Shown piece by piece: positions 3,013 to 39,722 of a stretch of 39,722 nt of DNA (position 1 is the stretch's first letter; every line of letters begins with the position of its first letter). This stretch comes from Pseudomonadota bacterium (GTDB lineage: Bacteria; Pseudomonadota; Alphaproteobacteria; Paracaedibacterales; UBA11393): NCBI GenBank assembly GCA_018061565.1, contig JAGOTX010000001.1:1-39722 (forward strand). The letters are read 5' to 3'. The notes under the pieces were generated by a model. The model was given only the letters and a program-made list of their open reading frames with translations. It made no database searches and was not told the origin of the DNA. Position numbers and translations under genes: made by a program.

Positions 3013-3030
3013 TAGAAAGAGAGGTTTTTT

Positions 3031-4375: not shown

Positions 4376-4379
4376 AAAA

Positions 4380-18606: not shown

Positions 18607-19184
18607 AAACGTCTTGTTTTTTTTTTTTTTTAAGTATGGTTTTAAATGCAAAGCCTGATCTTGAAAAAGCGTATAAAGATGGTTTAGCCTTTGCGAACAG
18701 TAAAGTGGAAGAAAATAAATCCATCTTTAAGCCGCGTGTGGGTGTTTGCCAAAAAGCAGCAAAAGAAGAGGATATTTTAAAATGTTTAAAAGGCGGCAAG
18801 GGACACGAATTTAAACTGCCAGAAAATAAAAAAGAAGAAGACGTTAAAACAACAATAGGCGATAAAATTTATGTATTTGTGTCCTTTTCGATGCCAAAAG
18901 CAAGTCTCATCAATCTTTTAAAGGAAGCGCCAAAGCACAATGCAACGCTTGTGTTAAGAGGGCTTAAAAACAATTCCTTTAAAGAAACAGCAAAAGTTAT
19001 ACAAGACTTTTATGATCAAGAAAAAGGGGAGGGCGTTGGTTTTGAAATTAATCCCGAACTCTTTGAAAAACACAAAATCGCTTCTGTTCCGGTGTTTTTA
19101 AATCTAACAAACAACAACAAATTATCAGGCAATGTAACCCTTGATTTTGCAGTCAAAAAAATCAAAGAAGAAGGGTTTTCATGA
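18576..19184 (+). CDS. trbC: F-type conjugal transfer protein TrbC
   Basis: 202 aa. The position between traU and traN and the size match F TrbC. The signal peptide LKTSCFFFFLSMVLNA is partly encoded by a T15 homopolymer. Confidence 0.65.
   Translation: MEEEKLLYALKTSCFFFFLSMVLNAKPDLEKAYKDGLAFANSKVEENKSIFKPRVGVCQKAAKEEDILKCLKGGKGHEFKLPENKKEEDVKTTIGDKIYVFVSFSMPKASLINLLKEAPKHNATLVLRGLKNNSFKETAKVIQDFYDQEKGEGVGFEINPELFEKHKIASVPVFLNLTNNNKLSGNVTLDFAVKKIKEEGFS
18617..18631 (+). repeat. T15 homopolymer inside the 5' end of trbC
   Basis: Counted directly: tgt ttt ttt ttt ttt tta gives 15 consecutive T, encoding CFFFFL of the TrbC signal peptide. Confidence 0.95.
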
Positions 19185-20812: not shown

Positions 20813-21570
20813 TGAAACTTTTAATCATAACACTCTTTCTTTTAAATCACTGTTTTGGAGATGGATTTTTTAATACCCATTCTAAGGGGTGGCATTGGTA
20901 TGAAAAGATAATTGAAGAAGAGGATGAACTTAAAAAAGATGTAAAAAAGGAAGATCAAAAACAAAAACCAATGACACCAAGCGAAACCGTTAAAGCCTAT
21001 TCAAAAGAACTTGAAAACCGTCTTCATAAAGCATGGATAAATCCAACAGGTGAAAATATTAAATCATATATGGAAATGCAAAAAGATATGGTTGATCGAT
21101 CTGAAACATTTTCTAAAAATTGGATGCAGACCATTTTTACGAATCCTCTATTAGATGAAACACTTAAAAACCCCGTGAATCAAAAAGCACGTCACCTTCA
21201 ACTCGATCTTCAAAAGCAAAAAACAAAGGAGACAATCAAGGGTCTTTCAAAAGAATATGGGCTTTTTTTCTTCTTCTCAAGTAAATGTGCGTATTGCCAT
21301 GAGTTTGCACCGATCGTTAAAAACTTTTCTGAAATCCACGAATGGGAAGTGTTAGCAATTTCACTTGATGGGGGTCAAAGTGATGTCTTTAAAAACAGTG
21401 TTCCAGATAATGGGCTCTTTGAACAGTGGAATGTGCAAGTGCTCCCAGCCCTTTTTGCTGTGAACCCCACCACAGGTCACGTTATTCCTGTTGCTTACGG
21501 CCTTACCTCCATTGATGAAATGGAAAACAGAATTATGCAACTCGTTGAAAATAAGGAAGAACCAAAATAA
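20809..21570 (+). CDS. traF: TraF-like thioredoxin-fold conjugal transfer protein retaining a CxxC motif
   Basis: 253 aa with a signal peptide. GLFFFFSSKCAYCHEFAPIVKNF...AISLDG is the TraF/TrbB thioredoxin-like core. The CAYC motif is present, whereas F-plasmid TraF itself lacks CxxC. Confidence 0.8.
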   Translation: MMKLLIITLFLLNHCFGDGFFNTHSKGWHWYEKIIEEEDELKKDVKKEDQKQKPMTPSETVKAYSKELENRLHKAWINPTGENIKSYMEMQKDMVDRSETFSKNWMQTIFTNPLLDETLKNPVNQKARHLQLDLQKQKTKETIKGLSKEYGLFFFFSSKCAYCHEFAPIVKNFSEIHEWEVLAISLDGGQSDVFKNSVPDNGLFEQWNVQVLPALFAVNPTTGHVIPVAYGLTSIDEMENRIMQLVENKEEPK

Positions 21571-21584
21571 TGAAAAAGTATTTT

Positions 21585-21878
21585 TTAAAAATTATAAACA
21601 TCTTTTCTGTGCCCAATATGGATCGTAACAATAACCCATTTGTTATCATCGATTGTTGCAATCAATCGATAGTCTCCAATGCGCATGGAATGCAAATAGC
21701 TTGCATTTCCAGAAAGTCTTTTGAAAAAAAGCGTTGGATTAATTTTTCCACTCATGATCTGTTCAATTTTTTTCTTAATACGAAGCTGAACAGGTTTATC
21801 AAGTTTTTTAAAATTGTCTTTGGCTTCATCGGAAAATGCAAAATTCCATGTAATGGGATCAGCAGATTTAAAGGCCAT
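21585..21878 (-). CDS. RelE/ParE-family type II toxin
   Basis: 97 aa. The C-terminal MRIGDYRLIATIDDNKWVIVTIHIGHRKDVY is the canonical RelE/ParE signature. Its start overlaps the antitoxin stop by 11 nt. Confidence 0.85.
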   Translation of the reverse strand: MAFKSADPITWNFAFSDEAKDNFKKLDKPVQLRIKKKIEQIMSGKINPTLFFKRLSGNASYLHSMRIGDYRLIATIDDNKWVIVTIHIGHRKDVYNF

Positions 21879-22086
21879 TTTCAGCCATTACATCAGCAAA
21901 GGTATGTATCTTTTTGGAAGAATCAAGAAAGTTCTGATAAGCCTTTAAAGCACGCTCCTTTTCATCTTCATCCTCTAAAAGTTTTTCTAAGGCTTTTTTT
22001 ACGTAATAGCTTTTTGATCGTTCGTTACGGATGGCAAGTTGTTCAAGTCTTTCTTCAATGTTTTTTGGAAGTCTTACAGCGAGCAT
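21868..22086 (-). CDS. RHH (CopG/RelB/ParD-like) antitoxin
   Basis: 72 aa. MLAVRLPKNIEERLEQLAIRNERSKSYYVKKALEKLL is a ribbon-helix-helix. It lies upstream of and overlaps the toxin gene. Confidence 0.8.
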   Translation of the reverse strand: MLAVRLPKNIEERLEQLAIRNERSKSYYVKKALEKLLEDEDEKERALKAYQNFLDSSKKIHTFADVMAENGL

Positions 22087-23510
22087 GGTGTTACCTTTTA
22101 AAGAGAGGATTATGTATTACATTATATAACACTGTTGTACAAAAAATCAAGATCTTATTCATTATCTGTTTGATCTCAAAAAGTGCTTATGCCGATATAT
22201 CAAGTGATTTGATGACCTTTTTTAAAAAATCTGGGATGGCAAGTAACGCCACGATGCCCAGTGCTTATAAAGATCAGTCTGCAGGATATTATACAGGGGG
22301 ATCTCTCAGTGTTCGAACAGGGGTTCGAAATGCACAAATTGCCTCTGTTCAAATGCCTGGGTTTAGAGGAGGATGCGGTGGTATTGATCTTTGGGGTGGT
22401 GGATTTTCACATATCAGTGCTGAAGATCTTGTAAGGGTTCTTAAAAACATCGGATCGAGCGCTGCAAGTTATGCCTTTATGCTCGCTATTCAAAGTGTAT
22501 CACCCCAAATCTATAACATTATGAATGAACTCAATGCTTTGGCCACACAAATTAACCAAACCAACATTAATTCCTGTGAGGCGGCGGCAACCCTTTTAGG
22601 GGGTGTTTGGCCAAAGACAGATCAAAGTAGTAAACATCTTTGTCAAGCGATGGGAAACCAAATGGGGAAATTTTCTGATTGGGCGAATGCGCGTCAAGGG
22701 TGTGGTGCAAAAGGCAATAGAGAAGATGTTTTAAGTCATGCGCATGCGGATCCCAAATATAAAGATATGCTGATCGGCGAATTTAATCTTGCTTGGAAAG
22801 CAATTCAAAAGAATGAATTTTTAAGGTCTGATTCACAACTTGCACAGCTTTTTTTAACCCTTGTGGGTTCCATTATTTCAAGAAAAAATGGTGAAAACCT
22901 TGAAATTTCAAGTTTGCCGTCCCATGCGGATCGAGATGATCTTTTAAATGGTTTATTAGAAGGGGGAGATACCGATATTTACATTTGTAATGATGATCGA
23001 TGTTTATACCCTTCAAAACAAAAGGTAACGATTAACCAAAGTTCATCGCTTATTCGAAGAACACATGAGATTTTAGAAAGCCTGATTAATAAAATCTATG
23101 ATGAAGGAGCTTTAACTGAAGAAGAAAAAGCTTTTTTAAATTCAACAAGGTTACCTGTCTATAAAATGCTGAACGTTATGACAGCGTATAGACGAGGGGA
23201 ATGCCCTTTGGATATTCACCATTATGCAGAACTGATCGCTTTGGATATTTTATATAAATATATTTTAGAGGTCATTGATATCGTTCATGATAGTGTTTCA
23301 GATTTAAAGTCGGCGCAGGTTGATGAAGCCCATATGGATCGGTTTTTAAAGCAACTCCAACATGCAAGAGAGCGCATTTTACAAAAACGACAAGCAGCCT
23401 ATCAACAGATGGATTCAACCCTTTCATTTATAGAAGCAACCCAAACAATCGAAAAACAACTCTATATGATGATCGGTCAATCCGTTGATGAAGGAAGCTT
23501 TGTGGAATAA
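22065..23510 (+). CDS. traH: F-type conjugal transfer protein TraH (start codon uncertain)
   Basis: The signal peptide KILFIICLISKSAYA followed by DISSDLMTFFKKSGMASNATMPSAYKDQSAGYYTGGSL aligns with my recollection of the F TraH N-terminus (ASADVNSDMNQFFNKLGFASNTT...AAGYASGGSL). There is no in-frame ATG or GTG between 21573 and the signal peptide. TTG at 22065 is the nearest canonical-class start, and ATT at 22116 follows an AGAGAGGA RBS. The ORF-track start at 21570 runs antisense through the TA cassette. Confidence 0.8.
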   Translation: MEVLQRAWCYLLKRGLCITLYNTVVQKIKILFIICLISKSAYADISSDLMTFFKKSGMASNATMPSAYKDQSAGYYTGGSLSVRTGVRNAQIASVQMPGFRGGCGGIDLWGGGFSHISAEDLVRVLKNIGSSAASYAFMLAIQSVSPQIYNIMNELNALATQINQTNINSCEAAATLLGGVWPKTDQSSKHLCQAMGNQMGKFSDWANARQGCGAKGNREDVLSHAHADPKYKDMLIGEFNLAWKAIQKNEFLRSDSQLAQLFLTLVGSIISRKNGENLEISSLPSHADRDDLLNGLLEGGDTDIYICNDDRCLYPSKQKVTINQSSSLIRRTHEILESLINKIYDEGALTEEEKAFLNSTRLPVYKMLNVMTAYRRGECPLDIHHYAELIALDILYKYILEVIDIVHDSVSDLKSAQVDEAHMDRFLKQLQHARERILQKRQAAYQQMDSTLSFIEATQTIEKQLYMMIGQSVDEGSFVE

Positions 23511-23522
23511 GGAGAGATAAAA

Positions 23523-26279
23523 ATGGCATATGAAATTTATACCTGCGGGAATGGTGAAATATTAAAGGGTGTTTTTGATGCGATAGCGATGTGTTTAAAT
23601 GGGCATTCAGGAACCCTTTATGAACCTTTAAAGCGTATTGGTCTTATTATGGGGGCTTTTTGGGCAGCCATTTATGCTCTTTTTGGGGATCAGGTAAAAG
23701 TTTTAACGCATTGGATTATGCCCATGGTTGCCATTTCAAACCTTTTGTTTGTTCCAACAACAGAAGTTTGGATTCATGATCCGGTTACCCACTACCATCA
23801 AAAGGTTGATCATGTCCCTTATGGCCTTGCAGCCTTTGCAGGCAATATCAGTAAAATTGGACATCTTATAACAGAACAAGTTGAAAAGGTTTTTTCACTT
23901 CCCGATGATCTAAGATATCAAAAATCAGGAACACTTTTTGCATCCAATATTATGATGCAGGCTAAAAAGTTTCGCATTGTTAATGATGATATTGCCCAAA
24001 ATATGCGAAGTTTTGTTGGCCAATGCGTTGTTTATGATGTGATGCTGGGGCGTAAATACACGATGCAAGACCTTAAAAACACAGATGATATTTGGGGATT
24101 GATATCACAAAGAGCATCGCCCAATCGGTCTTTTGTTTGGCGCGACCCAACCTCAAGGCGATCAGAGATTATAACTTGTCAAATAGGTGTTCAGAAATTT
24201 AATGCTGTTTTGGGCCAAGAGATTGATCGAACAGCAACTGTGTATGGTAAGCGTCTTTTTGGTAAAGGTAGTGTTGTGGACGCTAAAGTTGAACTTTTAA
24301 AGTATTTGCCTATTGCCTACAGTGCTCTTGGTAACATCTCAAAATCGGCAACCGATATTTTAAAGCAGCAAATGATGATTACAAGTATTATTGATGGGAT
24401 TGAAAGTGGATCCCAAGCCGTTGGAAATGCGCCTAATTTTGCCGCAAAACGGGCTTACCTTCAACAGAGATCAACCTATGAGACATTAGGCGCTATGGCA
24501 GCAGATACATTGCCGACCATGAAAGCTGTTTTAGAAGCAATTGCTTATGCATTTTTTCTATTTGTGATACCACTTGCCTTTTTACCATTTGGATATAGTT
24601 TTTTGTTTCGCTGGATGCAGATTCTGATTTGGCTTCAAATGTGGGCGCCCCTTTATGCGGTTTTAAATTTCATTATGACTATGGCTGCAAAAATTAAAAC
24701 GGTAGGCGCCTTATCCGTTTCAAATGAAGCAGGAATTACCATTGCAAGTTCTTTAGGCGTTTATAATATGAACGCCGATATATCCGCAATGGCAGGGTAT
24801 TTAGCGATGAGTATTCCGTTTTTAAGTATAGCGCTTGTTAAAGGTGTAGGATCTTTTGTTCATATGGCGTCCCACCTTGGAAATGTGAGTCAAAGTGCGG
24901 CAGGTCATGCAGCATCAGAAGTGACATCAGGCAACTTTAGTTACGGAAATATAACAGAAGGGACAAGCCAAATTTCTAATTCATCCCAGTTTCAAAACAG
25001 TCGTGCCGCCAGTTACAGAGCAGGATCATTTCAATATCAAGATGGGCGGTCCGATATTACAACGATGGGAGATGGATCCCAAATTGCCAATATTGGTACA
25101 TCGAATTTACCCATCAGTGTGAATGCTGCAGAAAGTATGAGTACGCAACAATCAGAGATGGCGGCTAAGTCATATCAAAAGGGTTTAAACTTATCGGAAA
25201 GTTCAGGGCAAAGTTTGGCAAGTAGTGCACGGTCTATGGTGAGCCTCAGTAATAGCTTATCTCAAATGGAACAAAGTGGGGATTCGGCAATCCAAAACAT
25301 TTCAACAGAAGAGAGTAGATCCATTCATAAAGGAGCGCAGTTGATTCAGGATTTTGCTAAGCAAAATAATATTGATGATGTTAAATCAGCTGAACTTTTA
25401 GGATCGCTTGGTTTAAAAACACCCAATAATATACCATTTGTTGATGGGTCTTTGCGTGCTCAAGGGAGTATTAGTTCAAAAGATCAAGAACTTTTTCAAA
25501 AAGCACAAAAATTTGCTGAAGATCATAATTTTCAAGAAGCAATGCGTGAATCTTCTCAAGCATCCAAGAATTTATCGCATAATTTATCGGATGAAAATGC
25601 AAAGCGTTTGGCAGAGGATGTTTCTGGCAGTTACGAAAAAGGCATGCAACAAAGATCTGAGGCTTCAAAAAACTTTAGTGAATCAGAAAATTACCAACAG
25701 CAAGCTATGTTTACAAAAGCTAATTCTGCCAATATTAACAGAAATGCCAATCAAGAGTTCTTTGATTGGTTATCGAATCAACCAGCCGATAATGCGCCAG
25801 GTAAAATGGGTAAACAAGCAGCTGCTTATACAATTGCCCATGAACCAGAGTTAACGATGGAATATGCACGGCACTTTTCAAATGAAAAAGGATTTACACA
25901 AAACACTTCTGGCTTTGAAGGTCAACAACAATCTTTAAGATCAGGTTATGATCAAGAAAACAGACAAAACGTTTATGCAGTTACAAAAGATGCGATGAAT
26001 GAGGTTCGGTCAAAGGGTACGGTTGAATTCGAAAAAGAGAGATATATATCGTCTCACCCAACACGTCAACACGTTGAGTCCGTCCAACAAAATACAAAGT
26101 CCAACATGAATGAATCCATCAGCCAACTTCAAGAAAAAGGAAATGCGACAAAGGATATTGTTATTCAAAATCAACAAAAAGGTGTTGTCAGACGCCTTGG
26201 AGAAAAAGGAGTTAAGGAAGTTAAAAACACAGCCAAGGATGTTAAAGATTTTTTTAGTGGGGAGTCACAACAAGGATGA
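23523..26279 (+). CDS. traG: F-type conjugal transfer protein TraG (mating-pair stabilisation/entry-exclusion partner)
   Basis: 918 aa. The polytopic N-terminal half has several TM segments (e.g. AYAFFLFVIPLAFLPFGYSFLF). The C-terminal half is Ser/Gln/Asn-rich and hydrophilic. Size and position are as for F TraG. Confidence 0.85.
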   Translation: MAYEIYTCGNGEILKGVFDAIAMCLNGHSGTLYEPLKRIGLIMGAFWAAIYALFGDQVKVLTHWIMPMVAISNLLFVPTTEVWIHDPVTHYHQKVDHVPYGLAAFAGNISKIGHLITEQVEKVFSLPDDLRYQKSGTLFASNIMMQAKKFRIVNDDIAQNMRSFVGQCVVYDVMLGRKYTMQDLKNTDDIWGLISQRASPNRSFVWRDPTSRRSEIITCQIGVQKFNAVLGQEIDRTATVYGKRLFGKGSVVDAKVELLKYLPIAYSALGNISKSATDILKQQMMITSIIDGIESGSQAVGNAPNFAAKRAYLQQRSTYETLGAMAADTLPTMKAVLEAIAYAFFLFVIPLAFLPFGYSFLFRWMQILIWLQMWAPLYAVLNFIMTMAAKIKTVGALSVSNEAGITIASSLGVYNMNADISAMAGYLAMSIPFLSIALVKGVGSFVHMASHLGNVSQSAAGHAASEVTSGNFSYGNITEGTSQISNSSQFQNSRAASYRAGSFQYQDGRSDITTMGDGSQIANIGTSNLPISVNAAESMSTQQSEMAAKSYQKGLNLSESSGQSLASSARSMVSLSNSLSQMEQSGDSAIQNISTEESRSIHKGAQLIQDFAKQNNIDDVKSAELLGSLGLKTPNNIPFVDGSLRAQGSISSKDQELFQKAQKFAEDHNFQEAMRESSQASKNLSHNLSDENAKRLAEDVSGSYEKGMQQRSEASKNFSESENYQQQAMFTKANSANINRNANQEFFDWLSNQPADNAPGKMGKQAAAYTIAHEPELTMEYARHFSNEKGFTQNTSGFEGQQQSLRSGYDQENRQNVYAVTKDAMNEVRSKGTVEFEKERYISSHPTRQHVESVQQNTKSNMNESISQLQEKGNATKDIVIQNQQKGVVRRLGEKGVKEVKNTAKDVKDFFSGESQQG

Positions 26280-26284
26280 AAAAG

Positions 26285-26788
26285 TTAGTAGCGATTATTT
26301 GCGCTTGTAGAACTAAGAGCACTCAAATAAGCAGGGGTACTAACAATACTGCTGTTCCAATAATTATCGTTACGCAATCTTCTAGAGTATTCTGTCAATG
26401 GATCGCTGGTATCATAAGATTCATAAGATCTTTTTCTTGTTTTCAGCCAGTCAACAGCAATTGCTCCAATGAAAAAAGAGATTGTATTGACCCAAGAAAT
26501 ATGTCCTTCTGCCAACACGTATGTTGCAAAGAAAAAACCAACAAACGTCAACAGATGACGCCAAATGAAGGAAGCAAACTTTTTAAGGTGTTCTTTTTGA
26601 ATTACGTCAACTTTAATCCATTTTGTTTTGGCAAAATCAAAGGCCGCAAAAGCGAGCAACAAAACAGAAGAATTGAAGAGGGAGAGGGTTTGATAGGTCA
26701 AAAGAACAGAGGCGCAAATACAAAGCATCAGGATAACAAGCATATGACGCCACATAAAATAACCGATTTTTTGAAACGCTGTAATCAT
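26285..26788 (-). CDS. Four-TM membrane protein with an internal two-fold repeat, function unknown (candidate exclusion/immunity protein by position only)
   Basis: 167 aa. Repeated modules are FMWRHMLVILMLCICASVLL...AFAAFDFAKTKWIKV and FIWRHLLTFVGFFFATYVL...GAIAVDWLKTRKRS. A GGAG RBS lies 9 nt upstream. It is convergent with traG with a 5-nt gap. Confidence 0.55.
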   Translation of the reverse strand: MITAFQKIGYFMWRHMLVILMLCICASVLLTYQTLSLFNSSVLLLAFAAFDFAKTKWIKVDVIQKEHLKKFASFIWRHLLTFVGFFFATYVLAEGHISWVNTISFFIGAIAVDWLKTRKRSYESYDTSDPLTEYSRRLRNDNYWNSSIVSTPAYLSALSSTSANNRY

Positions 26789-26896
26789 GATAAATGCTCC
26801 AATTCTTCATACCTTCATTATAGCATAAAAAAGGTTAATTGTTTATGACTTTAAACGATATAATAGCAAAAAATACATCTTCAAAGGCTTTCATTC

Positions 26897-27934
26897 ATGA
26901 CTGACATTTTAAACACAAAAGACTACATTACCTTTTTAAACGATATCAAAAAAGATATTCAAACATCCCGTGTTCGGGCTGCTTTATCTGTAAACAGAGA
27001 GCTGATCCTTCTTTATTGGCGGATTGGTACTGAAATATTAAAACGTAAAAAAGAACAAGGTTGGGGATCTGACGTTGTAAAACAACTATCTTTAGACTTA
27101 AAACACACTTTTCCTGAGATGAAAGGTTTTAGTGAAAGAAACCTTGTTTATATGCAAACATTTGCGGCAAGTTATCCTGATTTTGAATTTACGCAGCAGC
27201 TTGCTGCGCAAATACCATGGTTTCACAATTGTGTAATTTTAGATACTGTAAAAGATCAAAAAACGCGTATTTGGTATATTGAAAAAACGATTGAAAACGG
27301 TTGGTCCAGAAATGTCTTATCGATGCAAATTGAATCTTCAGCTCATCTAAGGTTGGGGAATGCACAAACAAACTTTGAGATGACTCTTCCAAAGCCAACA
27401 TCAGATTTAGCAAGGGATCTTATCAAGTCATCTTATAACTTTGAATTTTTAGGAATAGCTTCTGACGTTCATGAAAAGGTGATTGAAAAGGGACTGATCG
27501 ATAATATTCGAAATTTTCTTCTTGAGATGGGAACAGGGTTTAGCTTTATAGGAAGCCAATACAGAATAGAACTTGCAGGTGAAGACTTTGTAATTGATAT
27601 GTTGATGTATCACATTAAACTTAAATGCTACGTTGTAATTGAACTTAAGGCAGGGAAATTTAAACCTGAATATGTTGGAAAATTAGGATTCTATACAACA
27701 GCGATTGATCATGAAGTAAAAGACGATTCTGATAACCCAACAATAGGTATTCTTCTTTGCCAATCCTCCAATCAGATGATGGTTGAATATTGTTTAAAAG
27801 ATACAAGAAAACCCATTGGTGTTTCAGAATATACAACAGGGTTACCAGAAAACTACCAAAAATTATTACCAACACAAGAACAGTTTCAACATTTATTAGA
27901 AACACTTGAACCAGAAGAGGAAATAGATACATGA
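26897..27934 (+). CDS. DUF1016/YhcG-family PD-(D/E)xK nuclease-like protein
   Basis: 345 aa. NRELILLYWRIGTEIL, GWGSDVVKQLSLDL, FPEMKGFSERNLVYMQTF and WYIEKTIENGWSRNVL match the YhcG N-terminal domain. The C-terminal DMLMYHIKLKCYVVIELKAGKF fits a D...E.K nuclease core. Confidence 0.8.
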   Translation: MTDILNTKDYITFLNDIKKDIQTSRVRAALSVNRELILLYWRIGTEILKRKKEQGWGSDVVKQLSLDLKHTFPEMKGFSERNLVYMQTFAASYPDFEFTQQLAAQIPWFHNCVILDTVKDQKTRIWYIEKTIENGWSRNVLSMQIESSAHLRLGNAQTNFEMTLPKPTSDLARDLIKSSYNFEFLGIASDVHEKVIEKGLIDNIRNFLLEMGTGFSFIGSQYRIELAGEDFVIDMLMYHIKLKCYVVIELKAGKFKPEYVGKLGFYTTAIDHEVKDDSDNPTIGILLCQSSNQMMVEYCLKDTRKPIGVSEYTTGLPENYQKLLPTQEQFQHLLETLEPEEEIDT

Positions 27935-29799
27935 AATTATTTTCAGACGCATTCACCCAAGGTGGTCAAACACAACTTCATCAATTTAGGATGATTAAAC
28001 AAGTTGTTGACGCAACATTTAAAGTGAGTTTTTGGGTATTTTTGGTCTTGTTTGTTTTATTGATTTTAAAGACGCATATTTGGCAGGATTTTTGGATGCT
28101 TTTAGCTTATGGAAAGGCTTATCTTCGTGTTGAGTTTATGTCTTTTTTACCAAACGGATTTTTTGATACCAGTTATATTTATTATGACGATGGAACGGGT
28201 GATTGGTTCAGTGACCAAAACCTTCTTAATCACACAAAAATTACAAATTTTGTTTGGGTTTGCCTTTTTTCATTTTTAAAGAAGTTTTTTCAAAGTTTAA
28301 TGATAACCTTTGTTGCAATGATCGGTGTTTGTTATTTTTGGTATTCAAGGGGAAAACAAAAACAATCACTTAAAATTTTAAGTGGGTTTGAGTTGGTTGA
28401 TCCAAAGAGACTCTCTAAACTCGTTAAAAAACAAGGGGCCAGTGTTTATAAAATTGGAGAGGTTCCACTGCCTAAAGATGCTGAATTTCAACACATGATG
28501 GTAACGGGAACAACGGGTAGCGGTAAGTCCAACATGATTCACCACCTTTTAAACCAAATAAGGGAACAAGGAGATCAAGCGATTATTGTTGATACAACAG
28601 GGGGGATGGTCTCTCGTTTTTATGATGGATCAAGAGATTTGATTTTAAACCCTTTAGACGAAAGATCACAAAAGTGGAATATGTGGAAGGAATGTACAGA
28701 AAAATCTGATTTTGATGAACTGGCTGAAACGCTTTTAGAATCCAATACACCAGATCAGTTTTGGGTTGAAGCAGGACGGCAACTTTTTGCAGAAACAGCG
28801 TATTTGTTTTCTAAAGAAAACAATGGGTCTTTAAAGGCGCTTTTAAAAACGTTATTGCAAGATCCGTTGAAAAACATTCAATCCATTCTTCAAAAAACAA
28901 ACGTTGCAAGTCTTATGGATCCTTCAATTGAAAAGACAGCGCTTTCTGTTCGCGTCACTATGATGACGCATCTTCGGTCTTTTTTAAACATTGAAGATGG
29001 GGGGACCTTTTCGATTAATCAATGGATGCAAAGTCCTGAATTTCACCAGTTTTTGTTTCTGTCGTGTAAACCCGATCAACGTGAACTTTTAAAACCGCTT
29101 ATTACAGCATGGGTTGGGGTTGCCATTAAAGCGCTTATGAAACAGAGTGAAGATAATGGACGCCGTGTTTGGTTCATCATTGACGAGCTAGCATCTTTAC
29201 AGAAAATACCATCCCTGATGACAGCGCTTACTGAAATTAGAAAGTATGGAGGATGTATTGTTTTAGGTATTCAAAACTTACCTCTGATTGAAAATACGTA
29301 TGATCGAACAATGGTTAAAGCGCTTTCTGACTTAACAGGTACAAAGGTTGTTTTTAGATCACTTGATCCAGATGTCACACGCACAGTAAGTTCCTTTTTA
29401 GGGGAACAGGAAGTGATGGAAGCATCTGAAAGCGTTTCTTATGGCGCACACCAAATGCGAGACGGGGTGAATTTAGGGGCTCAAAAAACAACCAGAAAAG
29501 TTGTACCTCCTACAGAGATCATGAAACTTCAAGACCTTAATTGCTTTATAAAGCTTAAAGGTGATCTACCTGTTGCAAAATATGCATTTACGTACCTTAA
29601 GATGGAACAAAAAGCCCCATCCTTTATTCCAAAATCAAAAAATAGAGAGGATGATTTTGTATTCTCTATTCCTGTTACGAAAGAGGATCTTTTAAAAGAT
29701 ATGGATGATGCTACTGTTGTTGAAATGAAATCAAAACAACAGGAAGAAAAAGTGAGCATGGAAGAGATAGTTAAGGAATTGAAAGAATCTAATGTTTAA
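27931..29799 (+). CDS. traD: F-type coupling protein TraD (T4CP, VirD4/FtsK-like ATPase)
   Basis: 622 aa with N-terminal TM segments, Walker A GTTGSGKS and Walker B VWFIIDELASL. There is an ATGA overlap with the preceding gene. Confidence 0.9.
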   Translation: MKLFSDAFTQGGQTQLHQFRMIKQVVDATFKVSFWVFLVLFVLLILKTHIWQDFWMLLAYGKAYLRVEFMSFLPNGFFDTSYIYYDDGTGDWFSDQNLLNHTKITNFVWVCLFSFLKKFFQSLMITFVAMIGVCYFWYSRGKQKQSLKILSGFELVDPKRLSKLVKKQGASVYKIGEVPLPKDAEFQHMMVTGTTGSGKSNMIHHLLNQIREQGDQAIIVDTTGGMVSRFYDGSRDLILNPLDERSQKWNMWKECTEKSDFDELAETLLESNTPDQFWVEAGRQLFAETAYLFSKENNGSLKALLKTLLQDPLKNIQSILQKTNVASLMDPSIEKTALSVRVTMMTHLRSFLNIEDGGTFSINQWMQSPEFHQFLFLSCKPDQRELLKPLITAWVGVAIKALMKQSEDNGRRVWFIIDELASLQKIPSLMTALTEIRKYGGCIVLGIQNLPLIENTYDRTMVKALSDLTGTKVVFRSLDPDVTRTVSSFLGEQEVMEASESVSYGAHQMRDGVNLGAQKTTRKVVPPTEIMKLQDLNCFIKLKGDLPVAKYAFTYLKMEQKAPSFIPKSKNREDDFVFSIPVTKEDLLKDMDDATVVEMKSKQQEEKVSMEEIVKELKESNV

Positions 29800-31454: not shown

Positions 31455-34400
31455 TCATCGTTCAAACCCCCGTTCTAATTCTTTTTGCCGTTCAAAGGTT
31501 TTAGATTGTTCGATTTGTTTTTGAAGTTTGACTGTTTCTTCTACTGCTTTAAAGATTGATTTTTCAGTATTAAGATTTGAATTTTCCATTCTTGAAATAA
31601 GTGTATTTTTAAGCAGTACCTCTTTATGCCGATCATCCATTTTTGATATTTTTGGGTGATTTTCTATATAGTGATGAATATTTTTGATTTCCTCTAAGAG
31701 TTGTGTTTTTGTTGTATCATTCATTTGAGTATTTGTTAAAAGTTTAATTTGAACAAACATCTCAACATAGGCTTGATGAATATTTTGAGGTACTTCTGGA
31801 TTTTTTTGCTGAAGTGCATGAACAGCTTTAGTGTTTTCTTGGTTTTGTTGTCCCATCATTTTGTGAGCATCTTGTATAAGAATAGATTTGTCATGGCTCA
31901 TGTAATAACTGGGATTGCCCATAAATTTTTGTGTTGCATAAAAGGCTATATCATTAAGGGATTTTAACGTATCAAGAGGGGAATCTTCTTTGATGTTATA
32001 ATAATTTTTAGCGGTGTCATAAAAAGTTGACTGAATAACAGCTTCTTCTCTTAAGTGAGGAGGCTCTTCTTTTTGAACAAGTGCAAAACTCGTTCTTAAA
32101 TTTTGATACATATGATTTGTCATCTCTTTTTGGTGCAAAGAGAAGCTGGACTTAAATCCATAGAGATCGAACTTATAGAGTTCAAATTTTTGATGCGTAT
32201 CATTGATTTCTTTATCTGTAATTTCTCTGAGTGGAGAAAGGGTTATTGTTAATTCTTTTTGAACAACGTTACCTTTATCCTTTACAAGTTCTTTCTGATC
32301 TATTTTGATAGCGTTACTCATCAACTCTTCATGGGTAAAGCCTTGCGGGAGTTTATCAGCAAGGTCCCATTTGTGGGGAAGCGTTGAGGGGAGATCAACA
32401 ATAGCAAGGGATTTGATATCTTTTTCATTGAGGATAGCTGCTATTTTGGTAGCTGCTAGACTTCCTGCTTTATCGTGATCGGGCCAAATCGTAACATCTC
32501 GATCTTTTAAAGGGGACCAATCGGATTTTTGAACAGATCCACAGCCACCACTCCAGGTGATTACAGCGTGATCTTTAAAGATAAGACGTGCTGCTTCACA
32601 GGTTTTTTCACCCTCAACAATAAGGACAGGGGCATTTTGTTTTTGTTTGAGTATGTCAAGACCATAAAGGGGTCGATCATCGCCAAAGCCTTTGAATTGC
32701 CACTGTTTTTGACCTTTATTATTTTGGCAATAGGTAAGGGTTGGCGTTATTTTGTTTCCATCCTTATCTTCTAACCTTACAACATATCCAAGCGTCTTTC
32801 CTTCTGCATCTTTATATTCAAACGTTGCAACCTCATGACGACCTTTCAGCATATAACTGAGCTGTTTTTCACGTTTTAAATCAGGGTAGGGGATATTGAT
32901 TGGGAAAGTTGGAACCCACTGCTTTTCTTCTAAGTGGATCGGTTGTGTTTTTTCTTTTGATTCATAAACAGGTTTTTTGAATTCCTTACTGCCAAGGCCT
33001 AAATAATCGACTCCCCATTTAAAGGCTTCTTTTTTATCTAAATTCATTTGATCTGCAATAAATTTGACAACATTTCCACTTTCACCTGTTTCAAAGTTGG
33101 CATAAAGCCCCTGCTTTTGGCCGGCAACATGAATAGCGATGGATCCCTTTTTACCATAACGCCATTCTCTTGATGTTTGACTTGTTGGCTTTCCTAAAAA
33201 GTGGGTTGCAATATCTTTAATGTTATTGTTGAGGTCGATCACAATTTCATGAGATGTGCGTGTAAATTCGGGAATTGTTTTTGTATAAGATTTTGTCACC
33301 TCATGATGGTGTTCTTTAACATTTTGAGTATTGTCAACCGTTGACGAATTTTGTTTTTCCACATGCTTTATCAATGTCTTTTTAGAGATTAAATATTCTT
33401 TAGCCTTCTCCTTAATAAAAGGGGCATGGAGGCGGTAGTTTTCTAAAATATCTTTCGCCAAACTATTTCGTTCACCTTGCATTGTTTTAAAGGCATCAAA
33501 TTGACTTTTATGTAGATTCAAATCTTTGCCTTTTAATTCCTTCCAAAGAATCCGTGTTGCAAGTGCTGTCTCGCCATAAAGTTCAACCTGAAGCTTGGCC
33601 TTCTCTTCTAAGATTGATAGAGGGCGTTGTTTAAGTCCTGTTGTAATCTCGAGCATTTCCTTTGTAAAACCCCCTTGATTGATAAAGGTTTTGTGACTCT
33701 CAAAATCCTTTAAGATCTCCCGTCCTAACGTTATTTGTTCTAATCGAATTGCTTGATAGGCTTTGATATCAAAGTCATCTTTACTTGCTTTCATGTGCGC
33801 CAAATCAAGGCCGCAAAGCTTATAATCTTGAACCCGCTCCCACGCTTTTTCATAAGGTTTTTGGATTGTATAATCCTTTACCAAATCTTTATCCTGATAA
33901 CGAGAAAGAGCAATCTTTAAATGATTAAACGATTTAAATTGATTGGGTGAATAATATAAATGTGATTCCTCCCTGTGACGCGTCATCGCCACATAAAGTG
34001 CTTTGGCATCATGGCGTTTATGAGCTTTAACAAGTGTGATATCCACTGTTTGACCTTGTGATTTATGGGTCGTGATGGCATATCCATAATCAATGGATTG
34101 ATAGTCATTCACATTAAAATGGGCAAATGTTTGATCTTTTAATTGAACCTTTACATTTCCTTTATGATCCGCTTTTAAAAGTGTTCCGACAGATCCATTT
34201 TTAATAAAGGCACCCTCCACTTTTAGACCATACTTATTGGTGATTTTAACATCTTCTTTATCGTTCTCTAAAAAGACGATTTTTTCACCCTTAACATATG
34301 TCTTATTTTTAAAGGTTAAAATGGTTTCTTTCTCTATAAGGCTTTCTTGTTTTAAAAGGGATCTGATTTCATTATTTAAAAGCCCTGTTTCTGCATTGGT

Positions 34401-36218
34401 ATAGGCAAGGACTGCAACATCTTTACCAAGCTTTATATGATGGATATAATCCCTTGCCATATTGGTTGCTATGTTCTTTTGATCGACTTCATGGACATAA
34501 CCATTTCTGTGATAAGCTGTTAACCCTTCTTGTATATCCAACCTTGAAAATGCGAGCGATGCTTGCTTCATCCAATCAACTTTTTGACGTCTGATTTGTG
34601 AAAGTTCAAACAGATTCTCTTTCCTACTTTCCTTAATGGCCCTAAAGAAGTCTCCAGCATTAACAGCACTAAACTGATTATTATCACCCACAGCAATGAT
34701 TTTGGAGCCAGCTTCTTTGGCATGAGTCAGTAAACTTTCCCACTGTTTGATCCCAATCATCCCAGCTTCATCAACGATAATAACAGTTTTATTGTTCAAA
34801 CGATTATTCCCAAACAACACAAGGTTTTTATACCAACTAAACTGTTTTAAAACCCCCTCTTCTACCACAGAATCAAAGGATAATAACTTATTATCAGCCT
34901 CTTTTAAGACATCGAGTTTATAAAGAAGAGAATGTAATGTTGATGACCCAATCTCTGCTTCATTGCCCAAATTTTCAGATGCAACAGCCGATAAAGAACA
35001 ACCGATAACATTAAAGCCAGCCTTTTGATAACAGTCAGATACAGCTTTAAGTGTTGTTGTTTTACCAGCCCCAGCACGTCCTACCAAAACCGATAAAGCA
35101 TCGTCTTTTAAAAGGCCAAAGACAGCATGTTTTTGTTCATCAGATAAGTAGCTATACTGTTTTGCAAGAGTCTTTGCAATATCTGAACCATATATTTTTT
35201 GTTTAAAGGATGCTTGATTAAAATCCTTTAAAAGCGATAACGCTTGTTCTTCACTTTTTGCATAATTGACGGATGAATACCGTCGTAGCCCATCAATATG
35301 CTCACCAACATAAATCGATTCTTTTAAACAATTTTCAAAAACATAAGAGGTTAAATTAACATCATCGCCAACACGTTTTTGAATGGCATAAAGAAGATCC
35401 TTTTGTGAAAACGTTGCTTGTTTACTTGTTATCTCATCTAAAATAACGGTTGGTGTGATTTCTATTTTTTGCTTATTGTCTAAATAAACTTGTTCATTTT
35501 GAGAGATGATGCGGGATGATTTTCCCTCAACAACCAATTTATCAGCATACCAACCATGATGTTTTGTTGGTTTTAAATTCAAACCCAAATCCAAAAAACT
35601 TTTTTCAGAAATGCGTTCATCAAATCCATCTCGTTCCAAATAAAAGTTGGTTTTATCAGCCCATAAACTGCGTGTTATCTTCAATTCTTTTTTGAGACAA
35701 ATTTCACGATCTTTAAGCCAAGAAAACGCACCTTTTTCATCAATAGATCTTCTCGATATTAAAAAATGCGCATGCGGGTTACCTGCATTTTCATGAATGG
35801 CATAGGTACAAAAAAGTCCACGGGATACAAATCGTTCTTTTAAAAAATCTTCTATCAATTCTTTTGAGGAATCAAGTGATAGCTCTTTTGGTAAAGCTGC
35901 AATGAGTGTCATCGCTGTTTGTGCAGAATTCATATACTTTTCACGAGCGAGTTCCCCATTTGGAAAACGTTTTAGAGCATATTCATCTTCAAACGATTCT
36001 GCTTTATCCCAAATAGAAAGACTCGCTAAATGAGAGGGAGCATGTTCTGGAAGGAGAGTGGCAAAACAGGCAACATCATGTGATCTATTTTGATAATTAA
36101 CATCGATTCCTCTTCTTGATTCATGGAGTTTTTCACCTGTGATATAAGCAGTATTTTGAACAGCACTTCTGCCGGAACTTCTTGAAATAAATCCTGATGA
36201 AAGATGATATATTGCCAT
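31455..36218 (-). CDS. traA_Ti: Multidomain relaxase TraA_Ti-like: MOBQ (MobA/MobL) relaxase, RecD/TraA-type helicase, Toprim primase-like domain, plus a ~300-aa C-terminal extension
   Basis: 1587 aa. The N-terminus MAIYHLSSGFISRSSGRSAV with catalytic Tyr and the HAHFLISRR histidine motif define a MOBQ relaxase. Helicase Walker A is VGRAGAGKTT and Walker B is IIVDEAGM. Toprim motifs LIVEGEKTCEAA and WPDHDKAG lie near aa 1200-1260, preceded by a primase-like region (REWRYGKKGSIAIHV...GESGNVVKF). Confidence 0.85.
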   Translation of the reverse strand: MAIYHLSSGFISRSSGRSAVQNTAYITGEKLHESRRGIDVNYQNRSHDVACFATLLPEHAPSHLASLSIWDKAESFEDEYALKRFPNGELAREKYMNSAQTAMTLIAALPKELSLDSSKELIEDFLKERFVSRGLFCTYAIHENAGNPHAHFLISRRSIDEKGAFSWLKDREICLKKELKITRSLWADKTNFYLERDGFDERISEKSFLDLGLNLKPTKHHGWYADKLVVEGKSSRIISQNEQVYLDNKQKIEITPTVILDEITSKQATFSQKDLLYAIQKRVGDDVNLTSYVFENCLKESIYVGEHIDGLRRYSSVNYAKSEEQALSLLKDFNQASFKQKIYGSDIAKTLAKQYSYLSDEQKHAVFGLLKDDALSVLVGRAGAGKTTTLKAVSDCYQKAGFNVIGCSLSAVASENLGNEAEIGSSTLHSLLYKLDVLKEADNKLLSFDSVVEEGVLKQFSWYKNLVLFGNNRLNNKTVIIVDEAGMIGIKQWESLLTHAKEAGSKIIAVGDNNQFSAVNAGDFFRAIKESRKENLFELSQIRRQKVDWMKQASLAFSRLDIQEGLTAYHRNGYVHEVDQKNIATNMARDYIHHIKLGKDVAVLAYTNAETGLLNNEIRSLLKQESLIEKETILTFKNKTYVKGEKIVFLENDKEDVKITNKYGLKVEGAFIKNGSVGTLLKADHKGNVKVQLKDQTFAHFNVNDYQSIDYGYAITTHKSQGQTVDITLVKAHKRHDAKALYVAMTRHREESHLYYSPNQFKSFNHLKIALSRYQDKDLVKDYTIQKPYEKAWERVQDYKLCGLDLAHMKASKDDFDIKAYQAIRLEQITLGREILKDFESHKTFINQGGFTKEMLEITTGLKQRPLSILEEKAKLQVELYGETALATRILWKELKGKDLNLHKSQFDAFKTMQGERNSLAKDILENYRLHAPFIKEKAKEYLISKKTLIKHVEKQNSSTVDNTQNVKEHHHEVTKSYTKTIPEFTRTSHEIVIDLNNNIKDIATHFLGKPTSQTSREWRYGKKGSIAIHVAGQKQGLYANFETGESGNVVKFIADQMNLDKKEAFKWGVDYLGLGSKEFKKPVYESKEKTQPIHLEEKQWVPTFPINIPYPDLKREKQLSYMLKGRHEVATFEYKDAEGKTLGYVVRLEDKDGNKITPTLTYCQNNKGQKQWQFKGFGDDRPLYGLDILKQKQNAPVLIVEGEKTCEAARLIFKDHAVITWSGGCGSVQKSDWSPLKDRDVTIWPDHDKAGSLAATKIAAILNEKDIKSLAIVDLPSTLPHKWDLADKLPQGFTHEELMSNAIKIDQKELVKDKGNVVQKELTITLSPLREITDKEINDTHQKFELYKFDLYGFKSSFSLHQKEMTNHMYQNLRTSFALVQKEEPPHLREEAVIQSTFYDTAKNYYNIKEDSPLDTLKSLNDIAFYATQKFMGNPSYYMSHDKSILIQDAHKMMGQQNQENTKAVHALQQKNPEVPQNIHQAYVEMFVQIKLLTNTQMNDTTKTQLLEEIKNIHHYIENHPKISKMDDRHKEVLLKNTLISRMENSNLNTEKSIFKAVEETVKLQKQIEQSKTFERQKELERGFER

Positions 36219-37205: not shown

Positions 37206-38603
37206 ATGTTTTTCAAACTCTTCTTATTTTTATGCTTAACACAACACTCATATTCGACCAACAATACTGATCTACCATCACATAACCATACAAGGTCTGG
37301 AGATATCGATGACTCCTTCTTAGAGGGTATAGCCTCTTTGTTTATTACAGAAGAAGAAAAACAAAAATATTTATTTTTACCAAACCTAAATTCAAAAGAA
37401 AGCTATGTCATTTCGATGTGTCCAATGAATAGCTCTGGTGATGGGTACCATATTTTAGCATATGCTATACTTGCAAAATCACATGAGAAAGAAATTCCAC
37501 CTATTCAGCTAACTTACGATAGTGATGATGATGAGCAAACATCCGAAAGTAAAATGAACAATTATACTGCAGTTTGCAGAACGATAACTTTGGCAAAAGT
37601 TATATCTTGTACAAATCTTTTTCTTGACCCTTTGTATCTTAATCCAGGTGTTAATGCAGAAACAGGAGAACCATACAAAAGAAAAACTTATCAACAAAAT
37701 GTTAGACAACACAATTTAACTCATACACTTAAACATCAGTATACACATTTCATTGATCAAAAATTGTTAACAACCCTTATAGCACAGTATTTTTTACAAT
37801 ATGGAAGAACAGATACTATAAACAAACTTAAAAAGGGTTTTTCAGTTTTTAATGACGGTAATCAACATCTTAAAACAGTCGTCAAAACAGTAAATACTGA
37901 ATATCAAAAAATTATAACAACAATTGGTACAAAACCTCTTGTTATTATTCATGCAAGGTATGCATCAACAGCGAATGATGTGCAAAATATAGAAGATGAT
38001 GCTTTAAACTTAAAAAACTATCTTGTTCAAAATGGTTATTTTGTTTGGTTTATTATGGCAGATGGTCGCTCTAAAGGAACCTCATTTAAACAGTTAAAAA
38101 ATGAAAATAGAACAGATCCTTTTCCTCATTATTTAGAAGGTGATCATACAGATTATGGAAAATTCTATCATTTGCGATTACTTTTAAAATTAACCGAGTT
38201 TCAAAATGTGAAAATTATTGGAAACACCAGTGGAACTTTAGATCTTGCAGCTTTTTTAGGGCATAATGTTTATAATCTCCACATATGGAATAAATCTATG
38301 AACTATCAGTGTGCACGAATTATCATTCAATCAACTTTTTTAACTCTAGATTTAATAACAGCAGATTTTTTAAGTCAATTAGAACCAACAGATGAAGATT
38401 GGAAGCTTTCAAGTTGGCTAATGGGTCAAAAACAAAAAATAAAAACAGATACAGATACAGTTCAAAGTGCTTTCACTGCTCCAACACAAGCTGGGTATAG
38501 AGATCTTTTCTGTATACAAACATTAAACGAAGAAAAATTAGTTCAAATAGAATACTTCGAAAAAATAAAATCATTCTTATTAGAATTACATAAGGATGAT
38601 TGA
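37206..38603 (+). CDS. Hypothetical protein with signal-like N-terminus; C-terminal half resembles a GT-B/GT9 (heptosyltransferase-like) glycosyltransferase
   Basis: 465 aa. LVIIHARYAST...LKNYLVQNGYFVWFIMADG and NVKIIGNTSGTLDLAAFLGHNVYNLHIW resemble the GT9 C-terminal motif (xIGNDSGxMHLAAALGxPxxxLF). The N-terminal 230 aa are unassigned. Confidence 0.35.
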   Translation: MFFKLFLFLCLTQHSYSTNNTDLPSHNHTRSGDIDDSFLEGIASLFITEEEKQKYLFLPNLNSKESYVISMCPMNSSGDGYHILAYAILAKSHEKEIPPIQLTYDSDDDEQTSESKMNNYTAVCRTITLAKVISCTNLFLDPLYLNPGVNAETGEPYKRKTYQQNVRQHNLTHTLKHQYTHFIDQKLLTTLIAQYFLQYGRTDTINKLKKGFSVFNDGNQHLKTVVKTVNTEYQKIITTIGTKPLVIIHARYASTANDVQNIEDDALNLKNYLVQNGYFVWFIMADGRSKGTSFKQLKNENRTDPFPHYLEGDHTDYGKFYHLRLLLKLTEFQNVKIIGNTSGTLDLAAFLGHNVYNLHIWNKSMNYQCARIIIQSTFLTLDLITADFLSQLEPTDEDWKLSSWLMGQKQKIKTDTDTVQSAFTAPTQAGYRDLFCIQTLNEEKLVQIEYFEKIKSFLLELHKDD

Positions 38604-38867: not shown

Positions 38868-39539
38868 TCAAAAATTTATAACAGCTCCTCCTTGATAGGG
38901 ATTTATCTCTATTCCCAACTTTCCTGTCATTAACTCATTATCAAAAAAATAATTAGGTTTATGATAAAACCATACAGAGCTTGGTACATTCAATATTTTT
39001 GGTGCATTTATATAAAAAGGCATTTCTTCCAAAAGGTAGTTAACAGATAAAAAAGGATCTCCATTACCAATACTTATACCTGGAATTCTAAAATTACTTA
39101 TAACTTCTTTTGAAAGATTTAAACATTTTTCCTTAAATATTTTGTTTTTTTCATAATGTTCCTTAATTTTATAAAGAGTATCTAAAAAAACATTCGAATT
39201 TTCATAATAATGCCACAATAACAACATATTTTTAGCAGTGGTATTATCAAGTCCATTTCGTTCTAACACTCTTATAACTCTATTAAAAAGGCAATTTATT
39301 TCTTTTCTCACTCTTTTTTCTATTCTTTCTGCGTCATAATTAAAAGCTTTTAAATTCCAAATTGAAGGTTTATCAAATATTATAAAATTACATCTGTTAA
39401 AGTTTCCAGATCCATAATGCCAAAGTTTTTCAATATTATCTTCTTTAAAATAAGAATTCCAAGGACTGAGAAGCAATAGTGCATGATCTCCCTTCTCTAT
39501 CAACTTTTTTGAATTATTACAACAAGGTAAAATGTTCAT
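38868..39539 (-). CDS. tRNA-dependent cyclodipeptide synthase (CDPS, AlbC-like, NYH subfamily)
   Basis: 223 aa. GDHALLLLSPWNSYFKEDN compares with AlbC HALIGISAGNSYFSQKN (catalytic Ser and Asn). VNYLLEEMPFY compares with NYVLAEAPLF (Tyr/Glu). VPSSVWFYH compares with VPSSVLCYH (Tyr-His). A GAGGG RBS lies about 9 nt upstream. Confidence 0.75.
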   Translation of the reverse strand: MNILPCCNNSKKLIEKGDHALLLLSPWNSYFKEDNIEKLWHYGSGNFNRCNFIIFDKPSIWNLKAFNYDAERIEKRVRKEINCLFNRVIRVLERNGLDNTTAKNMLLLWHYYENSNVFLDTLYKIKEHYEKNKIFKEKCLNLSKEVISNFRIPGISIGNGDPFLSVNYLLEEMPFYINAPKILNVPSSVWFYHKPNYFFDNELMTGKLGIEINPYQGGAVINF

Positions 39540-39722
39540 ATATCAAGCCCTCTATTACATATATAAAGTAAATAGTTTCACAAAGGGAAACCCCAAATAG
39601 GCCATGTGTGGGTAAGTAGCCCTTTTTCGGACAACTCAAATCCTTATAGAGTAAGGATTTTAAAAAAACATCCTCTGAAATAATTTTTTTGATATTTCTT
39701 TTTAAGTATTTATTGATGCATT

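Follow-up and report, generated by a model that had tools for sequence, protein, structure and literature searches.

The contig JAGOTX010000001.1 (39,722 bp) carries a gene for a tRNA-dependent cyclodipeptide synthase (CDPS), an enzyme that joins the amino acids of two charged tRNAs into a small cyclic dipeptide. The stretch analysed, called the window below, is the entire deposited contig. An original prediction had placed an open reading frame (ORF) for 223 aa at 38868..39539 and had quoted three segments of its translation as landmarks of the family. The ORF call is borne out, with an ATG start on the minus strand, and the segments were found at residues 23-31 (LLSPWNSYF), 167-174 (NYLLEEMP) and 186-193 (PSSVWFYH). 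The gene and the sites within it are as follows.

38868..39539, minus strand: CDPS coding sequence, 223 aa, ATG start, NYH subfamily, GenBank MBP9752219.1
39548..39553, minus strand: Shine-Dalgarno-like AGAGGG, 8 nt 5' of the ATG, read from the sequence
39447..39473, minus strand: LLSPWNSYF segment with Leu23, Ser25 and Asn28; the alignment to AlbC is gap-free at this Ser motif
39465-39467, minus strand: Ser25 in the xxSPxN loop, equivalent to the catalytic nucleophile S37 of AlbC
39456-39458, minus strand: Asn28, equivalent to AlbC N40
39252..39344, minus strand: long helix, aa 66-96 (70-94 in the AlphaFold2 model), with 8 Lys/Arg in FNYDAERIEKRVRKEINCLFNRVIRVLERNG
39018..39041, minus strand: NYLLEEMP segment with the catalytic Tyr168 (AlbC Y178) and Glu172 (AlbC E182)
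39012-39017, minus strand: Phe175-Tyr176, positions 6 and 7 of the P1 pocket, directly after NYLLEEMP
38961..38984, minus strand: PSSVWFYH segment with Trp190 (P1 position 8, AlbC L200), the catalytic Tyr192 (AlbC Y202) and His193 (AlbC H203)

The family assignment of the original prediction is confirmed by two profiles. The Pfam profile CDPS (PF16715) matches with 130.1 bits (cutoff 27, E = 1.3e-37) and aligns residues 2-221 of 223 to profile positions 2-218 of 220. The NCBIfam profile for tRNA-dependent cyclodipeptide synthases (TIGR04539) yields 136.4 bits (cutoff 45, E = 9.9e-40). The equivalog for cyclodityrosine synthases of the Rv2275 type (NF052540) is missed, at 66.4 bits (cutoff 300). 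Sequence matches in the PDB include all NYH-type CDPSs with a solved structure, namely BtCDPS (1.3e-18), Shae-CDPS (2.8e-17), YvmC (7.7e-15), AlbC (5.7e-14) and Rv2275 (1.4e-11). GenBank already names MBP9752219.1 'tRNA-dependent cyclodipeptide synthase', an annotation that predates the present analysis. The HMMER alignment places AlbC residues S37, N40, Y178, E182, Y202 and H203 on Ser25, Asn28, Tyr168, Glu172, Tyr192 and His193. A MAFFT alignment of 155 sequences, comprising the 151 nearest representatives and four PDB sequences, agrees with this placement, with catalytic columns 92-97% conserved. Counts among relatives in this alignment refer to 149 sequences: the S37 column holds Ser in 145 and the N40 column Asn in 141 of them. 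The catalytic Ser/Tyr/Glu/Tyr set and the Asn...Tyr-His signature are thus present both in the pairwise alignment with AlbC and in the multiple alignment.

An AlphaFold2 model, calculated from an 81-sequence alignment, reached a mean predicted local distance difference test (pLDDT) value of 96.4 and a predicted template modelling (pTM) score of 0.92. In a Foldseek search against the PDB, the top 48 matches are all CDPSs, and next in rank comes an engineered aminoacyl-tRNA synthetase (3qe4); model and ranking agree with a Rossmann fold related to class-Ic aminoacyl-tRNA synthetases. TM-scores are 0.81-0.89 for BtCDPS, YvmC, Shae-CDPS, AlbC (4q24) and Rv2275 chain A, with 0.87 for 7azu, and 0.75-0.77 for AlbC (3oqv) and Rv2275 chain B. 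The XYP enzymes (BcmA-type 9j61, Fdum, Rgry, Nbra, Parcubacteria) range from 0.58 to 0.71, below the 0.75-0.89 of the NYH enzymes. This ranking and the residues Asn28, Tyr192 and His193 support the proposed NYH subfamily. With the solved NYH enzymes BtCDPS (7azu/6ztu), YvmC-Blic (3oqh), Shae-CDPS (6ez3), AlbC (3oqv/4q24) and Rv2275 (2x9q), the protein shares the Rossmann-type fold, the Ser/Tyr/Glu/Tyr set, the Asn...Tyr-His signature and the length class of about 220-250 aa, but structural alignments give only 21-25% identity. Within the limits of sequence and predicted structure, the 223-aa protein is established as an intact member of the CDPS family and its NYH subfamily. The basic helix of residues 66-96 probably forms the binding surface for the tRNA acceptor arm, a role that we take over from work on helix alpha4 of AlbC.

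The window CDPS is isolated in sequence space. Apart from the protein itself, a word-indexed search of 5.8 billion clusters retrieved a single relative (57% identity). Among 1.84 billion representatives scanned exhaustively with HMMER, 360 proteins were CDPS-like; its own cluster stood alone at E < 1e-30, and the next best match was 32% identical (E = 4.5e-29). The nearest outgroup CDPSs are almost all metagenome proteins, with Pleionea mediterranea as the one named organism. Scanning GTDB representatives with two conserved peptide patterns of the clade gave 257 matches, none of which was confirmed as a close relative.

The 57% relative, P0002 (JGI 3300007488, contig Ga0100485_10028), aligns from end to end. 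It shares every catalytic residue and seven of the eight P1 residues, the eighth being a Leu/Ile exchange. Such identity in the active site at 57% overall identity fits selection on the active site. P0002 lies on an 81-kb chromosomal contig of 40% G+C, between tgt/uvrA and a bufferin-type cluster (BufA1/MbnB/HvfC/DoxX) and dnaKJ. The HslU protein of this contig is at most 66% identical to that of any named genome. Its best 80 matches comprise 71 named alphaproteobacterial taxa, three entries labelled Proteobacteria or Pseudomonadota bacterium and six without an organism in the title. The host of P0002 is a deep-branching alphaproteobacterium. The two loci share 66% nucleotide similarity over 631 nt, ending at the boundaries of the coding sequence, and the cargo genes of the window have no homologue within 10 kb of P0002. 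Like the window CDPS, P0002 has no tailoring neighbours; it differs in being a chromosomal gene with flanks unrelated to the window. Since the similarity is confined to the coding sequence and no neighbours are shared, the mobile and functional unit appears to be the single CDPS gene. The bufferin-type cluster for a ribosomally synthesised and post-translationally modified peptide (BufA1/DUF2282, MbnB/DUF692, HvfC, DoxX; 11238-13536, plus strand of the P0002 locus) begins 545 bp 3' of the P0002 CDPS on the same strand and is probably unrelated to it.

Substrate pockets of CDPSs are described by AlbC positions 33-35-65-67-119-185-186-200 (P1) and 152-155-156-159-204-206-207 (P2) (PMC5816076). 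The window CDPS reads L-L-I-F-W-F-Y-W for P1, lined by Leu21, Leu23, Ile53, Phe55, Trp109, Phe175, Tyr176 and Trp190, and L-E-V-N-K-N-Y for P2. The relative P0002 reads LIIFWFYW and FNVKKNY. Position 119 falls on Leu108 in the pairwise and on Trp109 in the multiple alignment, the latter being used. As a control of the column mapping, another sequence of the alignment, P0038, reads LGLPWFLF / IRVTRSP, an exact row of Table 2 of the 2018 classification (PMC5816076). The pocket residues could thus be read as the original prediction had proposed, but LLIFWFYW / LEVNKNY matches no row of this table, which covers the cLL, cYY, cWW, cCC, cFX, cPX, cW1X and cW2X groups, and no characterised specificity motif is reached. 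P1 also differs from LGLAFFFL (BtCDPS, YvmC) and LGVVLLFL (AlbC). P1 position 2 (AlbC G35) is Leu23 in the window CDPS and Gly in 130 of the 149 relatives. Position 67 (AlbC Val67) is Phe in the two-member clade, and 131 of the 149 relatives have Pro or Ala there; position 200 (AlbC Leu200) is Trp in the clade. Each of the substitutions Gly35 to Leu/Ile, Val67 to Phe and Leu200 to Trp introduces a bulkier residue. The usual P1 of the nearest relatives is xG[FY]PWLFF, and the motif L[L/I]IFWFYW occurs in no other of the 150 nearest representatives. A residue other than Gly at P1 position 2 is rare, with other instances in sequence space: it occurs in 20 of the 151 nearest sequences, both clade members counted, and two of these have Trp.

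A crowded P1 could mean that the enzyme has the CDPS fold but is catalytically silent. Leu23, Phe55, Trp109 and Trp190 might block the aminoacyl pocket, so that the protein would bind aminoacyl-tRNA without forming a diketopiperazine, or would use another acceptor. The unmatched P1 motif and the replaced Gly35 fit this explanation, and several of 32 putative CDPSs tested in E. coli are reported to have given no product (Gondry et al., 2018, PMC5816076). Loss of function agrees poorly with the retention of the catalytic Ser, Tyr168, Glu172, Tyr192, Asn28 and His193 in both clade members at 57% identity. Activity is known for a characterised cGE synthase whose P1 position 2 is occupied by the still bulkier Phe, and the other non-Gly residues at this position, Trp included, point the same way. 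A silent enzyme is regarded as highly improbable.

An active enzyme with a narrowed P1 may instead prefer a small first substrate. In XYP enzymes, Ala at P1 position 2 is associated with cLE, Leu with cAE and Phe with cGE; the groups with small first substrates (cAE, cAA, cGE, cGG) were all XYP in the 2018 classification, and all NYH rows of Table 2 have Gly at this position (PMC5816076). P2 motifs are not predictive of the product (PMC5816076). The XYP synthases of cAE and cGE, such as CDPS 87 of Legionella lansingensis (cGE), resemble the window CDPS in the bulky Leu/Phe at P1 position 2 and differ in their X40/Y202/P203 signature, the window CDPS being NYH by sequence and structural ranking. 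Because Leu replaces the usual Gly, and Phe and Trp add bulk at positions 67 and 200, a small first substrate, Ala or Gly, is favoured, tentatively and below even odds; the size rule is transferable by analogy only, since it comes from XYP and the window enzyme is NYH.

CDPSs follow a ping-pong mechanism (PMC5816076). In the window CDPS, a first aminoacyl-tRNA would dock on the basic helix of residues 70-94 and insert its side chain into P1. Transfer of the aminoacyl group to Ser25 would give an acyl-enzyme. The side chain of a second aminoacyl-tRNA would enter P2, and a dipeptidyl-enzyme would form with the assistance of Tyr168 and Glu172. Tyr192, to which we presume a role in cyclisation, would assist the intramolecular ring closure, and the 2,5-diketopiperazine would be released. 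Activity, substrate order and product are all drawn by analogy with the characterised enzymes.

The remainder of the window describes the replicon that carries the gene.

2180..5624, plus strand: plasmid maintenance module with a repeat-rich region, ParA, small ORFs and a Rep-like protein
2180-2900: repeat-rich, ORF-poor region just upstream of parA
3031-3804, plus strand: ParA
4509-5624, plus strand: Rep-like protein with a DnaA_N-like C-terminus
10042..29799, plus strand: F-type type IV secretion system (T4SS)/conjugation operon with TraL, E, K, B, V, C, U, TrbC, N, F, H, G and TraD
31455..36218, minus strand: relaxase, 1587 aa, MobA/MobL and SF1 helicase domains with a DUF6371/Toprim (primase-like) C-terminus
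36773-37186, plus strand: TraD(Ti)-like gene, divergent from and adjoining the relaxase gene

The repeat-rich region contains a 152-bp unit repeated 2.1 times at 2475-2787 (82% matches) and an array of the 11-bp ACAACACACAA at 2256-2299. It is probably a partition site or a set of replication iterons. For the Rep-like protein, the closest counterpart is encoded on a 15-kb plasmid of Ca. Paracaedibacter acanthamoebae (37% identity across 94% of the Rep-like protein), and weaker matches come from plasmids of Ca. Bandiella and Ca. Paracaedimonas. The original prediction of an AT-rich, probably host-associated bacterium is in line with this kinship to plasmids of amoeba and protist endosymbionts and with the 33.5% G+C of the contig.

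The conjugation operon yields Pfam matches, all above cutoff, for TraL, TraE, TraK, TrbI (TraB), TraV, TraC, TraU, TrbC, TraN, TraF, TraH, TraG_N and TrwB/TraD, an F-type mating-pair formation set with its coupling protein. The relaxase is not of the MOBF (TraI) type; it combines MobA/MobL and helicase domains and is about 30% identical to annotated Ti-type TraA. The prediction of an F-type conjugative element holds for the full T4SS but not for the relaxase. The system appears to be mixed, with an F-type mating apparatus and Ti-type DNA processing. The best plasmid matches of TraU come from Mycetohabitans and Burkholderia at about 55%, which makes the T4SS uninformative on the host. With positions 36000-39722 as the query, Megablast retrieved no plasmid. 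In base composition, the CDPS ranks with the most AT-rich genes of the contig, at 26% G+C overall and 17% at third codon positions (GC3), compared with 27-31% GC3 in the tra genes. Other cargo genes are likewise AT-rich, and both fit a long residence in an AT-rich lineage.

ParA, the Rep-like homologue of a Ca. Paracaedibacter plasmid protein and the upstream repeat region argue for a plasmid, and the searches of the contig turned up neither an integrase nor a tRNA or housekeeping gene. The plasmid reading of the original prediction stands on these points; it gains no support from circularity, as a search for terminal direct or inverted repeats or overlap found none. The missing terminal overlap would also suit an integrated conjugative element or a chromosomal assembly fragment with the CDPS as cargo of a chromosomal island, as would the chromosomal location of the closest CDPS relative. 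In Rickettsiales-type integrative elements, F-type T4SS genes occur together with TraA and TraD of the Ti type. Given the maintenance genes, this alternative is considered unlikely.

Flanking the CDPS on the contig, or next to it if the contig were circular, are two further genes.

37206..38603, plus strand: orf465, convergent neighbour of the CDPS, 465 aa, divergent GT-B-fold protein, last gene of its operon
94..1572, minus strand: orf492, 492 aa, signal peptide and a C-terminal half of glycine-rich GGxGG-type repeats

As foreseen, the downstream side consists of the convergent 465-aa ORF ending at 38603 and an inverted repeat, and no recognisable diketopiperazine-tailoring gene flanks the CDPS. 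The original prediction had also proposed to look beyond 39722 for tailoring genes. No deposited sequence exists there, the window being the whole deposited contig. If the contig were circular, orf492 would precede the CDPS on the same strand, 276 bp upstream across the junction. Neither Pfam nor NCBIfam gave a match to orf492, which has a GC3 of 15% and 39% G+C overall. Its signal peptide and glycine-rich repeats led to its rejection as a tailoring enzyme.

The CDPS might nevertheless belong to an unrecognised cluster in which its product is glycosylated by orf465 or modified by a GNAT acetyltransferase encoded at 8963-9448. Orf465 lies 264 bp from the CDPS stop and shows a GT-B-like fold, and the GNAT gene is on the same contig. 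Orf465 has no Pfam or NCBIfam match, and its family profile gave only noise against PDB sequences. Its AlphaFold2 model (pLDDT 86) has weak Foldseek likeness (E about 1e-4, TM 0.3-0.4) to GT9 heptosyltransferases, UDP-GlcNAc 2-epimerases and FUT8. Several observations separate orf465 from the CDPS. It ends an operon of orf128, the TraD(Ti)-like gene and orf465 itself, divergent from the relaxase gene and convergent to the CDPS. Its family counts 38 clusters in alphaproteobacterial metagenome-assembled genomes, with one eukaryote-database match, against two sequences in the CDPS clade. The motif GNTSGTLDLAAFLG is nearly invariant in this family, and a few homologues are fused to OTU, Ulp1-type (C48) protease or helix-turn-helix (HTH) domains; OTU and Ulp1 fusions are typical of host-directed effectors. 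Neither orf465 nor the GNAT has a homologue within 10 kb of P0002, and the GNAT gene lies about 30 kb off on the linear contig, where it forms a toxin-antitoxin-like pair with an overlapping HTH gene. A cluster of this kind is a very remote prospect. Orf465 was rejected as a tailoring enzyme on account of its fold, its family distribution and its absence from the P0002 locus. It looks like a glycosyltransferase-type effector directed at the host, and its family is possibly an unrecognised one of this kind. With no tailoring enzyme linked to the CDPS, the final product is probably an unmodified cyclodipeptide.

Taken together, the window is best explained by an active single-gene NYH CDPS, carried as cargo on a conjugative plasmid of an AT-rich alphaproteobacterium that is probably an endosymbiont of protists or amoebae. 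We give this reading, which draws on sequence comparison and the predicted fold, a probability of roughly 0.85. Several points besides the missing terminal overlap weigh against it. The host assignment draws on the 37% Rep match and the taxonomy of the homologues of one cargo gene. In a promoter scan of the 183-nt leader, the coding strand showed no match to the sigma-70 consensus. The P1/P2 specificity code is degenerate, and the size rule for P1 position 2 comes from XYP, not NYH, enzymes (PMC5816076). The occlusion of P1 in the window CDPS is deduced from its residues alone.

Plasmid-borne CDPSs are known from other bacteria. CDPS genes occur on 42 plasmids in PLSDB, of which 11 are typed as conjugative and two are from Legionella; Staphylococcus, Bacillus and Streptomyces are also represented. 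These genes share with the window CDPS the role of accessory cargo on mobile replicons. They differ in that their proteins are 25-29% identical to the window protein, their plasmids have other backbones and their hosts are Gammaproteobacteria, Firmicutes and Actinobacteria. The conjugative plasmid NC_020522 of L. pneumophila LPE509 likewise has a CDPS locus without classical tailoring genes, on a MOBP/MPF_T backbone. In this locus (5953-8725), the CDPS overlaps a downstream gene for a 682-aa 'response regulator' and adjoins a copper-efflux cluster. The CDPS of pLlyPCM2298_1 in L. lytica is part of a published plasmid-borne biosynthetic cluster (PMC11828895). Genome mining found CDPSs in Ca. 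Megaira, Rickettsiales symbionts of protists, and a defensive symbiosis was proposed (PMC10132079). By description, these hosts are similarly AT-rich intracellular alphaproteobacterial symbionts of microbial eukaryotes; as a difference, the word 'plasmid' does not occur in the main text of that report.

The CDPS family, its chemistry and its occurrence on plasmids and in intracellular bacteria are established, and the window CDPS therefore opens no new category. The claim of a CDPS as cargo on a conjugative element is supported, but its novelty is less than the original prediction implied, given the GenBank annotation and the known plasmid CDPSs. What appears out of the ordinary is the isolated sequence, at most 32% identical to characterised CDPSs, together with the crowded, unmatched P1. 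For these two reasons it is a good candidate for specificity studies. As a compact single-gene enzyme, it would be informative for extending the specificity code of CDPSs and could show whether the association of a bulky P1 position 2 with a small substrate extends from XYP to NYH. The diketopiperazine gene joins effector-like cargo, namely a tetratricopeptide repeat (TPR) protein, the GT-B-like protein, some homologues of which carry deubiquitinase-type domains, and a secreted Gly-rich protein. There are hints that the CDPS product takes part in host interaction; a role as signal, antagonist or host modulator is conjecture. Rather doubtful is the wider proposal that the two-member clade, with P1 filled by Leu/Ile at position 2, Phe at 4 and Trp at 5 and 8, would be a new NYH specificity group with a very small first aminoacyl group (Gly/Ala) and that the unmodified product would be a transferable endosymbiont molecule acting on host or competitors.

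Two non-coding features border the CDPS gene.

39540..39722, minus strand: CDPS leader, 183 nt, with a 9-bp hairpin at 39638-39660 and a G+C-richer patch
38617-38658 / 38724-38765, no strand assigned: inverted repeat with 42-nt arms, 74% complementary, between the convergent orf465 and CDPS genes

The original prediction had correctly noted that 183 bp are left upstream before the sequence ends. The fold of the leader is not significant (z = -1.8), and the leader is not conserved upstream of P0002. Neither the leader nor the intergenic palindrome matches Rfam at gathering scores or at E <= 1. A riboswitch, a T-box or another known RNA family in leader or palindrome was rejected on the Rfam result, the weak leader fold and the lack of leader conservation. 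The outer 16 nt of the inverted repeat, GGCACCGTCAA(A/T)TTAA, are near-perfect, and it folds at -35.4 kcal/mol (z = -3.95). As the repeat occurs in a single copy in the window, there is no support for reading it as a dispersed mobile repeat like the palindromic elements of Rickettsia. It was not called a canonical intrinsic terminator; a shared transcription stop or insulator of the two convergent genes is probable.

Further genes were observed elsewhere on the contig. A YhcG/DUF1016 PD-(D/E)XK nuclease gene (26897-27934, plus strand) is located within the transfer operon, between the TraG and TraD-type genes. An Xre-type HTH gene (9432-9917) and the GNAT acetyltransferase gene (8963-9448), on the minus strand, overlap by 17 nt, an arrangement that resembles a GNAT toxin-antitoxin pair. 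Aminoacyl-tRNAs, the substrate class of CDPSs, are what GNAT toxins of this kind acetylate. Downstream of this pair, at 5588-8966 on the minus strand, a gene for a 755-aa TPR protein follows one for a 389-aa protein without a family match; both are cargo of 22-26% G+C. The TPR protein matches the N-terminal portion of the TPR protein of the FxSxx-COOH system, but at 102 bits it stays below the cutoff of 300.

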